4,195 bases of DNA from a virus (Duplodnaviria; Heunggongvirae; Uroviricota; Caudoviricetes): the IMG/VR virus record IMGVR_UViG_2740892230_000021; one strand, given 5' to 3'. Within the stretch, counting starts at the first letter, position 1. Each line of letters opens with the position of its first letter. Positions 1-4,195 of the stretch are shown piece by piece. Below the pieces are notes generated by a model. It searched no databases and had not been told where the DNA came from. It saw only the letters and a list, made by a program, of their open reading frames with translations. A program made the position numbers and the translations under genes.

Positions 1-277
1 GCACGGAATCTTCATGCCAGCGGGTATCGCTGTAGCGCGTTTTTTGCTCATCCTCAGCATTGGCATAACTGAAGGACGTAATCAGCCCCAGCGCGTCCGT
101 AAACTCATAACGGTATTTCACGTTAATCCCGTTCAGATCATCGCTACCGGGAACGTTCGTCGAGGCATGGAGATACCCCGCGCTCAGCGTGGACTGATGT
201 TCTGCTGCACTCGCTGGCGTAGCAGCGGCGACCTGCCAGACTACTGCGGACAAAATAACAGTACATAATTTACGCAT
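1..277 (-). CDS. lom: Lom/Ail/PagC-family outer membrane protein, N-terminal 92 codons (copy 1; 3' end lies beyond window start)
   Basis: ATG at 277-275 (minus) with GAGAGG Shine-Dalgarno at 283-288. Hand translation: MRKLCTVILSAVVWQVAAATPASAAEHQSTLSAGYLHASTNVPGSDDLNGINVKYRYEFTDALGLITSFSYANAEDEQKTRYSDTRWHEDSV. Signal-peptide-like N-terminus followed by GINVKYRYEFTD and RYSDTRWHEDSV motifs as recalled for lambda Lom. Confidence 0.85.
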   Translation of the reverse strand, partial: MRKLCTVILSAVVWQVAAATPASAAEHQSTLSAGYLHASTNVPGSDDLNGINVKYRYEFTDALGLITSFSYANAEDEQKTRYSDTRWHEDSV

Positions 278-306
278 AATTACCTCTCGCTTTTCTNNNN
301 NNNNNN

Positions 307-546
307 CGTTTTTTGCTCATCTTTGGCATTGGCATAACTGAATGACGTCACCAGCCCCAGCGTGTCCGTAAATTCATAACGGTATTTCACGTTAATGCCC
401 TTCAGGTCATCACTGCCTGGCATATCAGTATGGGTCTGAAGATACCCGGCGCTTAGTGTGGACTGATGCTCTGCTGCGCTCGCTGGCGTACCAGCGGCAA
501 CCAGCCAGACTACTGCGGACAGAATAACAGCACATAATTTACGCAT
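307..546 (-). CDS. lom: Lom-family outer membrane protein, N-terminal 80 codons (copy 2; bounded by N gaps)
   Basis: ATG at 546-544 (minus), same SD (552-557). Translation from ORF track: MRKLCAVILSAVVWLVAAGTPASAAEHQSTLSAGYLQTHTDMPGSDDLKGINVKYRYEFTDTLGLVTSFSYANAKDEQKT. Homologous to copy 1 with many substitutions. Confidence 0.85.
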
Positions 547-575
547 AATTACCTCTCGCTTTTCTNNNNNNNNNN

Positions 576-660
576 CCTGCTGCTCAGACGCCCATGCAGG
601 CGCACCGGATACGGTCAGACAAATGGCTGCGGACAAAATGGCGGCATAAAGTTTACGCAT
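576..660 (-). CDS. lom: Lom outer membrane protein, first 28 codons (copy 3, lambda-like signal peptide; the copy physically linked to the J 3' end in this block)
   Basis: ATG at 660-658 (minus). Translation MRKLYAAILSAAICLTVSGAPAWASEQQ is near-identical to the lambda Lom signal peptide as recalled. Truncated by the N run at 566-575. Confidence 0.85.
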
Positions 661-665
661 AATTA

Positions 666-671
666 CCTCTC
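666..671 (-). promoter_or_regulatory. Shine-Dalgarno (GAGAGG) for lom copy 3, 5 nt upstream of the ATG
   Basis: Minus-strand sequence gcGAGAGGtaattATG. The same element precedes lom copies 1 and 2 (283-288, 552-557). Confidence 0.65.
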
Positions 672-681
672 GCTTTTCTGC

Positions 682-708
682 AATAAAAAAGGCACCATTT
701 CTGGTGCC
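682..708 (-). terminator. Putative intrinsic terminator downstream of J: 6-bp GC-rich stem (GGCACC / GGTGCC), 6-nt loop, then TTTTTTATT on the minus strand
   Basis: Plus-strand 691-708 ggcacc atttct ggtgcc is a perfect inverted repeat. On the minus strand it is followed by a T-tract (plus 682-690 aataaaaaa). It lies 20 nt after the J stop and about 20 nt before the lom ATG. Confidence 0.5.
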
Positions 709-727
709 CGTATCTGGGTTATAAAAT

Positions 728-1527
728 TCAGCTAATCGTGATGCCTGCAGTGGCTTTCTTCATCACAACAACCAGCAAATCGCTGATACTTGCTGTGGGA
801 TACCAGCCATTTACCAGCCATGCTGACACCGAAAACTCCAGTGTCATGTGACCGTGACCGGCAGGCATATCAATAACGCCACTGTAAATCAGCGTATTAT
901 CCAGCGCGGTACGGTTATAAATTTCAGCACCGTTTTTCCGCACTATCAGACGGCATGAGGAGTAAATATCAGTATGCTCTCTCTCATGCTTAGCGCCACT
1001 GAATGCCACAGCCGGAATAACAATTTGCCGGTCAAACGGCTGATCGTCATAAACCCTGACGGTAATGGTCCCTGATGGCCACCGCTCCGGTGCCCGGGAG
1101 TCACGGGGGAAAGCTTTGCCCACTGTTTTAACGAGATCGCCTTCAATCTGGTTCGCGGACAGTTTTCCCAGAACCCGGCAGTTCTCGTTAATCGTGACGT
1201 TGTTGAGCGTCCCGGAATTCGCATTCACGTTACCGCTGATATCAGCATTTCTTGCGGTCAGCCTGCCCTCCGGCGTCAGGGAAAACGTCGGGGGATTGGC
1301 GGACGAGGTGATACTCACCGCAAACAGCCGCTTCAGGAACACATCGTTCATGAACAACTGATTCCCCTGCGCCACAAATAACGGCGTGGTGTTGCCGTCC
1401 TCCGGGTTAATCATCGCAATACGGTCAGCCAGCAGCAGTATGTTGCTCAGGGGCTGGCCATCAGTATCCTCAATCCCCGCTCCAATACCGGCAACATAGG
1501 GTATGCCATTTTTTGTTTTCTGTACCT
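728..1527 (-). CDS. J: Host specificity / tail tip protein J, C-terminal about 266 codons including stop (divergent receptor-binding end)
   Basis: Stop TGA at 728-730 (minus). Translation ends ...[102 protein letters not shown]. Upstream [14 protein letters not shown] and [15 protein letters not shown] motifs match lambda J as recalled. Confidence 0.9.
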
Positions 1528-1537
1528 NNNNNNNNNN

Positions 1538-1693
<156 letters not shown>

Positions 1694-1703
1694 NNNNNNN
1701 NNN

Positions 1704-2138
<435 letters not shown>

Positions 2139-2148
2139 NNNNNNNNNN

Positions 2149-2578
2149 TTGCTGGCGTTATCTTCCGTCAGCTCAAAGTTTTCCAGCAGTTCCTTGCCGA
2201 GATGCGTTTTATTGATCAACCCTTTATAAAAATTCAGATAACCTTCCGCATCATCGCTCGCCCGACCAACGGCCTCCACAAATGCCGATTTACCAACGGT
2301 GTTCACGCTGCGGATATAAAAGTAATAATCATAACCCGGCTTAATATTGCTACTGGCGGCTATCCAGTACAGCGCCGTACCAAGATAACGCGCGCTGGTT
2401 TCAACCTGCCTGATATCGATAATCCGCTTTTCCGAGAACCAGAACTCAAACTGCACCGTCGGGTCATATACAGCCAGTTTCGGGACCGCTGTTATCTGAA
2501 AATACCCTGGTATCAGTTCAATAGTGACAGGCGCTGCCGGTGCCGCAATCCGGAACGATACCGACGCCGGATCGCCCT
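2149..2578 (-). CDS. J: J fragment (central region, variant B, overlapping variant A and extending toward the N-terminus)
   Basis: Translation [145 protein letters not shown] 2149-2430 is homologous to 1860-2138. Confidence 0.88.
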
Positions 2579-2588
2579 NNNNNNNNNN

Positions 2589-2776
2589 TGCCGGATCGCC
2601 CTGCTGTCCCCACGCATTTACCGCCCGGACTGTCAGTCTGTAGTTCCCCAGCGCCAGTTGCGTGAAGCGGTATGTGGTTTCCGTCGTCCGGGCCGTGCTG
2701 ACCAGCCGCTCACTGCCGTCATCCGCTGTTACGGTCAGACGGAGCAGGAAGCTCACGCCCTTCACCACCTTCGGCG
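2589..2776 (-). CDS. J: J fragment
   Basis: Translation PKVVKGVSFLLRLTVTADDGSERLVSTARTTETTYRFTQLALGNYRLTVRAVNAWGQQGDPA. About 13-bp sequence overlap (gccggatcgccct) with the end of block 2149-2578. Confidence 0.88.
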
Positions 2777-2786
2777 NNNNNNNNNN

Positions 2787-3101
2787 GCTGCCCCCACGCA
2801 TTTACTGCCCGGACTGTCAGCCTGTAGTTCCCCAGAGCCAGTTGTGTGAAGCGGTAAGTGGTTTCCGTCGTCCGGGCCGTGCTGACCAGCCGCTCACGGC
2901 CGTCATCCGCTGCCACGGTCAGGCGAAGCAGGAAGCTCACGCCCTTCACCACCTTCGGCGTGTCCCAGCGCGCCAGTACCTGATACTCCCCGCTGTCTGC
3001 AGTGACTTCGGCGGTCAGATGCTGCACTGCTGGCGGCGTGACACCATTCACCGTGCCGCTCTGGTCACCGTCAAAGTGCGCCCCGTTATCCACGATGGCC
3101 T
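2787..3101 (-). CDS. J: J fragment (variant overlapping 2589-2776 and extending toward the N-terminus)
   Basis: Translation AIVDNGAHFDGDQSGTVNGVTPPAVQHLTAEVTADSGEYQVLARWDTPKVVKGVSFLLRLTVAADDGRERLVSTARTTETTYRFTQLALGNYRLTVRAVNAWGQ. Differs from the previous block at a few residues (TVAADDGRE versus TVTADDGSE). Confidence 0.88.
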
Positions 3102-3111
3102 NNNNNNNNNN

Positions 3112-3467
3112 GTATTCCCCGCTGTCTGCGGTGACTTCTGCGGTCAGGTGCTGCACCGCTGGCGGCGTGACACCATTTACCGTGCCGCTCTGGTCGCCGT
3201 CAAAGTGCGCCCCGTTATCCACGATGGCCTCTTTTTCCGGTACATGCTGCACGGCGGTGATGGCATACGTGCCGTCGTCGTTCTCACGGATACTCACGCA
3301 GCGGAACAGGCGCTGGCGCAACGTCGGCAGCTTAAGCCCCCACACGCTGTATTCAGCAACACCGTCAGGAACCCGGCTCACTTTTACCTTCACGCCGTCG
3401 GTGACGGACTGGACCTCCACGCTGACCGGATTGCCACTTCCGTCAACCAGGCTTATCAGCGTGGTAC
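3112..3467 (-). CDS. J: J fragment
   Basis: Translation ...LISLVDGSGNPVSVEVQSVTDGVKVKVSRVPDGVAEYSVWGLKLPTLRQRLFRCVSIRENDDGTYAITAVQHVPEKEAIVDNGAHFDGDQSGTVNGVTPPAVQHLTAEVTADSGEY. Its low-coordinate end duplicates 2980-3101. Confidence 0.88.
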
Positions 3468-3477
3468 NNNNNNNNNN

Positions 3478-3659
3478 CTCCCCTGCCCGTCAACCAGGCT
3501 TATCAGCGTGGTGCCGGAAGATGGCAGCGTGATTTCACGGTCGAGCGTCAGCGTCCGGGTCTGGCTGTTTACCGCCAGCACGCGCCCGCCGGTGCGGATA
3601 CCGGCATAGTCATCATCGCAGATTTCAATGACATCGCCCGGTACATGGCGAAGCCCTTC
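3478..3659 (-). CDS. J: J fragment
   Basis: Translation EGLRHVPGDVIEICDDDYAGIRTGGRVLAVNSQTRTLTLDREITLPSSGTTLISLVDGQG. About 24-bp overlap with the high end of block 3112-3467. Confidence 0.88.
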
Positions 3660-3669
3660 NNNNNNNNNN

Positions 3670-3766
3670 CAGCCCCCATACGCTGTATTCAGCAACGCCG
3701 TCAGGAACACGGCTCACTTTCACCTTCACGCCGTCGGTGACGGACTGAACCTCCACGCTGACCGGA
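3670..3766 (-). CDS. J: J fragment, short allelic duplicate of 3343-3440, placed out of colinear order
   Basis: Translation PVSVEVQSVTDGVKVKVSRVPDGVAEYSVWGL. In J this stretch belongs C-terminal to the 3478-3659 block, but it sits on the N-terminal side of it. Confidence 0.8.
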
Positions 3767-3776
3767 NNNNNNNNNN

Positions 3777-3853
3777 AGCACCCACGCTGAAGTCCACGGT
3801 CTGCGTCTCCAGCAGCTCCGTTTTAATCAGCCACAGCCCGGCGCGGTGTGCCT
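3777..3853 (-). CDS. J: J fragment, short allelic duplicate of 3864-3940
   Basis: Translation AHRAGLWLIKTELLETQTVDFSVGA. DNA is near-identical to the start of the next block, with a few silent differences. Confidence 0.8.
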
Positions 3854-3863
3854 NNNNNNNNNN

Positions 3864-4081
3864 GGCACCCACGCTGAAGTCCACGGTCTGCGTTTCCAGC
3901 AGTTCTGTTTTAATCAGCCACAGCCCGGCGCGGTGTGCCTGCCCCCGGCTGGTACAGCCAAAAGCATCCATCTTCGTGACGTTACGACCGTAACGGGCAA
4001 TGGCCTGCGTGTCCTCCACAAGCTCTGTCGCCGTCTCCCAGCCGTTATTCGGGTCAATCCAGTTCACCTCAACGGCATTAT
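3864..4081 (-). CDS. J: J fragment
   Basis: Translation NAVEVNWIDPNNGWETATELVEDTQAIARYGRNVTKMDAFGCTSRGQAHRAGLWLIKTELLETQTVDFSVGA, matching lambda J as recalled. Confidence 0.88.
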
Positions 4082-4091
4082 NNNNNNNNNN

Positions 4092-4195
4092 ATCTTCAAC
4101 AAGCTCTGTCGCCGTCTCCCAGCCGTTGTTCGGGTCAATCCAGTTCACCTCAACGGCATTATGGCGGTCCTTCAGGGCGCTGAAGCTGTAGCGGA
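4092..4195 (-). CDS. J: J fragment (runs off the window end; 5' part of the gene not in window)
   Basis: Hand translation in the frame starting at 4193: RYSFSALKDRHNAVEVNWIDPNNGWETATELVED. Its low-coordinate end duplicates 4005-4081. The M at 4148 in the ORF track is a GTG (internal Val) called as a start. Confidence 0.88.

Follow-up and report, generated by a model that had tools for sequence, protein, structure and literature searches.

Does a row of three different lom 5' ends at one end of a viral scaffold reflect a physical arrangement of genes, and what does it say about the prophages from which the sequence was derived? The question is raised by a 4,195 nt stretch of DNA (hereafter, the window) from the IMG/VR record IMGVR_UViG_2740892230_000021, which is classified among the Caudoviricetes. 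A first-pass annotation described its left end as three distinct lom 5' ends stacked back to back, and took these as evidence of at least three lom-bearing prophages. Over its whole length, the window consists of 14 blocks of 77–952 nt (4065 called bases in all), split by 13 runs of N. All 13 of these runs have a length of exactly 10, i.e. they are uniform linkers, and pairwise comparison shows that adjacent blocks are paralogous variants of each other with 84–96% identity. The three blocks that had been delimited at the left end (1–296, 307–565 and 576–660) are present, but the last of them does not stop at the lom start and actually extends to nt 1527. Coordinates are summarised in Table 1.

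Table 1. Features of the 4,195 nt window (positions count from its first nucleotide).
Feature	Position	Strand	Details
Block 1, lom type 1 5' end	1–296	-	ATG 275–277; 92 codons (2–277); RBS context 278–296
N10 scaffold linker	297–306		between blocks 1 and 2
Block 2, lom type 2 5' end	307–565	-	ATG 544–546; 80 codons
N10 scaffold linker	566–575		between blocks 2 and 3
Block 3	576–1527	-	type 3 lom 5' end, intergenic region and J 3' end
lom type 3 5' end	576–660	-	left end of block 3; ATG 658–660; 28 codons
Copies of the shared 28-nt string	269–296, 538–565, 652–679	-	RBS, start codon and next two codons
Terminator-like hairpin	690–709	-	GGGCACCAGAAATGGTGCCT then T-run TTTTTATT; between J stop and lom RBS
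Gene J 3' end	728–1527	-	includes C-terminal receptor-binding domain; stop codon 728–730
Blocks 4–14	1538–4195	-	eleven J fragments joined by N10; staggered paralogous variants, overlapping in reference coordinates

The three gene starts themselves are genuine, and their occurrence is far beyond chance. Translation of the minus strand gives MRKLCTVILSAVVWQVAAATPASAAEHQ... for type 1, MRKLCAVILSAVVWLVAAGTPASAAEHQ... for type 2 and MRKLYAAILSAAICLTVSGAPAWASEQQ for type 3, which are the three distinct N-termini originally reported. All score above the curated cutoff (23 bits) of the Pfam family Ail_Lom (PF06316), with 183.4, 163.2 and 34.3 bits, respectively, and all matches begin at profile position 1. 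At the DNA level, the lom blocks have matches in thousands of E. coli genomes, to genes that carry an Ail/Lom annotation, and the lowest E-value is 5e-151. Block 1 is 99.7% identical to the lom genes of E. coli FORC_069 and O104:H4, where they lie downstream of gpJ, while block 2 matches the lom of many complete E. coli genomes, and that of S1-JOR-02-A, with 100% identity, and is 99.6% identical to that of phage 2G7b. Block 3 as a whole (type 3 lom start and J 3' end) reaches at most 98.4% identity to complete E. coli genomes. The exact 85-nt type 3 start was found in 31 IMG/VR contigs and one JGI metagenome contig, none of which has N10 runs or a 100% match to other blocks; neither this sequence nor a pattern spanning the N10 junction had a match in GTDB representative genomes.

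By inspection, the N-termini resemble signal peptides, with a basic MRK, a hydrophobic core, and then ASA followed by AE, or AWA followed by SE. A complete eight-stranded barrel of about 199 aa with an aromatic end is absent from the window, which carries only codons 1–92, 1–80 and 1–28 of the three types, and the type 1 reading frame continues past the left end. As the truncations fall at the ends of blocks or of the window, they reflect the assembly and not the genes; full-length homologues of 199 aa are present at the KY204, 2G7b, S1-JOR-02-A and FORC_069 loci.

The DNA identity between types 1 and 2 is 86.5%, and 68 of 80 residues are shared, a divergence unlike that of sequencing noise or of near-identical strain variants. 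A difference between these copies in the mature barrel had been pointed out previously, and is confirmed (LHASTNVPGSDDLNG versus LQTHTDMPGSDDLKG). Three of the 12 substitutions are in the signal-peptide region (positions 6, 15 and 19), six are at positions 37–49, and three are at positions 62, 66 and 75, so that six of the nine in the mature region are clustered at the predicted first extracellular hairpin. From the topology of OmpX, and an alignment to OmpX, positions 37–49 are predicted to fall at the upper end of strand 1 and in extracellular loop L1. The idea that the substitutions lie in surface loops thereby gains partial support, from the six that coincide approximately with L1 in this predicted topology. 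Such clustering would be compatible with surface-exposed variability in the Ail/Lom family, and as such is not new.

All three types have the form of the common 199-aa Ail/Lom protein of E. coli prophages, which they resemble in the signal-peptide-like N-terminus, in the position directly downstream of gpJ, and in the start of the mature protein, (A/S)E(H/Q)Q..TLSAGYL...GINVKYRYEFTD, and from which they differ in that no full-length gene is present in the window. The type 3 start had been likened to lambda, but it matches only 9 of 28 residues of lambda Lom and 25 of 28 in the Lom of the KY204 prophage, which has the common 199-aa form, and the resemblance to lambda was rejected. Lambda Lom (NP_040601, 206 aa; PDB 9wso chain C) begins with MRNVCIAVAVFAALAVTVTPARAEGGHG and belongs to the same family, with the same J-lom-stf gene order; its identities to types 1, 2 and 3 are 32/90, 32/79 and 9/28 (approximately 35–40% to lambda over the region present), and its first loop region is longer than that of E. 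coli prophage Lom. The full-length type 2 homologue of 2G7b aligns to lambda Lom (PDB 9wso_C) and, over the whole barrel, to OmpX and Ail of the OmpX/Ail/PagC group of barrels (PDB 1QJ8 and 3QRA; E approximately 1e-18 to 1e-19), from which Lom differs in having longer extracellular loops. Serum resistance and invasion are known for the wider family, but are not ascribed to the prophage copies. The chain labelled 'Outer membrane protein lom' in PDB 9wso has the lambda Lom sequence and is a possible template for mapping loop variation; a literature search found no paper on this entry.

The first-pass view of Lom as a moron of the Ail/PagC/OmpX family, expressed by lysogens and linked to adhesion, agrees with published work on lambda Lom, which is expressed in lysogens and linked to buccal epithelial cell adhesion (PMC3594210, PMC7067206). 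For the copies in the window, an adhesion function would be carried over from lambda by homology.

To the right of its lom start, block 3 carries an intergenic region and the 3' end of tail-tip gene J. The latter matches the Pfam families Ig_GpJ_C (130 bits) and Phage_Tail_Tip (68 bits), and is annotated as gpJ in matching complete genomes. Across the C-terminal domain (nt 728–1527), identity does not exceed 98.4% among 5426 complete E. coli genomes, and, for this hypervariable domain, the sequence is a slightly novel allele. In each case lom lies directly downstream of J on the same strand, as seen for type 3 in the window and for types 1 and 2 in complete genomes, and the reference loci carry a single lom after the intergenic region and gpJ: type 1 in FORC_069, type 2 in S1-JOR-02-A and 2G7b, and a type 3-like gene in KY204. 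The intergenic sequence (GCAATAAAAAAGGCACCATTTCTGGTGCC... on the plus strand of the window) is near-identical across these four loci, and since it is common to the prophages it was assembled once, inside block 3.

Between the two genes is a terminator-like hairpin, which is also found in the reference prophages. In FORC_069 the stem reads GGCGCC...GGCGCC, the changes being paired on both arms so that pairing is kept, which suggests that a structure dividing J from lom has been conserved. The hairpin would be compatible with lom being a separately regulated moron; no sigma-70 consensus promoter was found in nt 576–900, and the downstream end of lom is outside the window.

How the blocks relate to a natural J-lom region was examined by mapping them to phage 2G7b (KY204 was dropped as reference because its J is too diverged in mid-gene). 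In 2G7b, the 14 blocks together cover no more than 2587 nt of lom-J, at a depth of 1–3, so that approximately 1.5 kb is redundant, and the same collapse to 2587 nt is seen in every top-ranked complete E. coli genome and phage. The lom stacking is a product of scaffolding and does not represent a physical arrangement: the three 5' ends are not back to back but are separated by N10 linkers, and they belong to blocks that fold onto this one short region. In a physically real array, truncated 5' pieces of lom and partly duplicated stretches of J would stand in tandem, with short unresolved gaps between them, as a result of repeated recombination between prophages. Runs of N are by themselves no proof that the flanking pieces are non-adjacent, and recombination between lambdoid prophages is common; but the layout of the window was not seen among the top-ranked matches of 4977 E. 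coli and 252 phage records; in each of these top matches the 2587 nt form a single-copy place.

The order of the blocks is also inconsistent with that of the reference. Blocks 10 and 11 (nt 3478–3766) are reversed relative to 2G7b, with block 10 mapping to 5155–5336 and block 11 to 5058–5154, which adds to the evidence that the order of the blocks is not collinear with a natural sequence. Blocks 2, 4, 6 and 14 (nt 307–565, 1538–1693, 2149–2578 and 4092–4195) are 99.8–100% identical to one prophage of E. coli S1-JOR-02-A, whereas the interleaved blocks 1, 3 and 5 are just 87–93% identical to it. A single real haplotype thus threads through alternate blocks, and one of the source prophages is a very close relative of a widespread lineage to which 2G7b and other top-ranked matches among complete genomes belong.

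The ends of the blocks point to the way in which they were generated. Six blocks (1, 2, 7, 8, 12 and 13) have, at their right ends, exactly 34 nt in common with the paralogous neighbour, while at their left ends most blocks begin 0–15 nt from a difference, and very short nodes of 77–97 nt have been retained in the scaffold. We infer that the 34-nt shared ends are the k-1 signature of nodes from a de Bruijn graph with k=35, and the type of assembler is deduced in the same way. Such ends also account for the appearance that all three lom blocks terminate in the same ribosome-binding site and start context. An identical 28-nt string (TTTACGCATAATTACCTCTCGCTTTTCT on the plus strand, agaaaagcgagaggtaattATGCGTAAA on the minus strand) is indeed present in all three copies, and in the four reference loci as well, but the point at which it is cut is the end of a graph arm and not a biological boundary: that blocks 1 and 2 both end at 19 nt upstream of the ATG is explained by their last mutual difference, which lies 34 nt before that point.

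These details argue further against a physically real array. It would have to be reconciled with the equal length of all 13 gaps, with six block ends placed exactly 34 nt past the last paralogue difference, and with thirteen independent truncation or duplication events, each at a variant boundary, which is not credible. Were it true, the array would be either a scar of recombination or a cassette-like reserve of different versions of the Lom N-terminus and loop 1, but it is exceedingly improbable and already close to refuted.

The artefact closely resembles the collapsed-repeat forks of Velvet-style short-read assemblies, with which it shares N10 linkers, short nodes, 34-nt (k-1) ends and paralogues placed in series. 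In Velvet, the nodes are written out to the scaffold with a set minimum of 10 N between them; a search of the literature for this convention gave no confirmation, only an unrelated mention. The window differs from such forks in that block 3 is unbroken at the fork. This block joins type 3-specific and shared parts, where a strict de Bruijn unitig would break, and so repeat resolution, or another algorithm, must be assumed.

A likely course of events can be proposed. The sequenced DNA would have contained the J-lom modules of at least three lambdoid prophages (or remnants), near-identical in the J-lom intergenic region and J 3' end, and diverged over the 5' portion of lom and patchily within J. 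Identical stretches would have been merged by the assembler into single nodes, and divergent stretches would have stayed as separate short nodes, with each variant-specific node reaching k-1 bases into shared sequence on one side. The scaffolder would then have set the alternative nodes in series, with 10-N gaps of minimum length. On this account the three lom starts would be three arms of one fork at nt 652–679, and not chromosomal neighbours. What begins in each arm is an ordinary gene for an Ail/Lom outer-membrane beta-barrel, which intact genomes carry once per prophage, downstream of J and the terminator-like hairpin.

If the stack is an artefact, what remains of the prophages it was thought to represent? 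Three distinct sequences, those of blocks 3, 4 and 5, cover 2G7b reference positions 4056–4138 in J. Together with the three lom 5' sequences, of which they are independent, they show that the sequenced DNA contains at least three diverged J-lom modules. To this extent the proposal of at least three lom-bearing prophages holds, for the lom 5' end and for the J stretch, but some of the modules may be in defective prophage remnants and not in intact prophages.

Whether the modules come from one genome or from several can be judged from how frequently lom is repeated in E. coli. Of 5426 complete E. coli genomes, 4273 contain a place where 80% or more of the query (block 1 or block 2) is covered. 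Among all genomes that gave any match, the number of lom places has a median of 2 and reaches 13–15. With such a base rate, the prior strongly favours paralogues in one genome. The other source to be considered is a mixed sample (a metagenome, a contaminated culture or a virome), in which the lom types and J fragments would come from different strains or phages and give an identical scaffold artefact. Within the window, the arms are not phased to one chromosome. The best complete-genome matches of blocks 1, 2 and 3 are different strains, whose top lists do not overlap, and block 3 does not exceed 98.4% identity to any complete E. coli genome. Among the matches listed (one place per record), no complete genome had all three lom types in near-identical form. 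However, prophage mosaicism accounts for a different best-matching strain for each arm, and the majority of complete E. coli genomes contain more than one lom place. Three IMG/VR contigs (UViGs) of one IMG genome, id 2526164630, each carry the exact 85-nt type 3 lom 5' end, and this genome is an example of several lom-bearing prophage regions within one record. A mixed sample is, on balance, rather unlikely, and we consider it probable that the window is a scaffold artefact to which three or more J-lom modules contributed, most probably those of a single poly-lysogenic E. coli- or Shigella-like genome, the single-genome origin being the part that we infer.

Scaffolds of this kind also give rise to misleading open reading frames. 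A 126-aa ORF (nt 280–660, minus strand) is a chimera, in which a type 3 Lom N-terminus is followed, across XXXX, by type 2 Lom. A 443-aa J ORF (nt 1470–2801, minus strand) has an apparent internal duplication, in which a string of 24 residues occurs twice, and this is blocks 5 and 6 juxtaposed. Gene callers that permit genes to span N will produce false fusion or duplication proteins from such scaffolds, and chimeric ORFs across N10 linkers can be mistaken for tandem gene arrays. The value of the present case is mainly cautionary. In biological terms, no more can be read from the window than the presence, in the sequenced DNA, of three or more diverged J-lom modules, which are common in E. coli; that an E. 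coli-like host can harbour a number of diverged lambdoid prophages bearing lom is already known and is ordinary.
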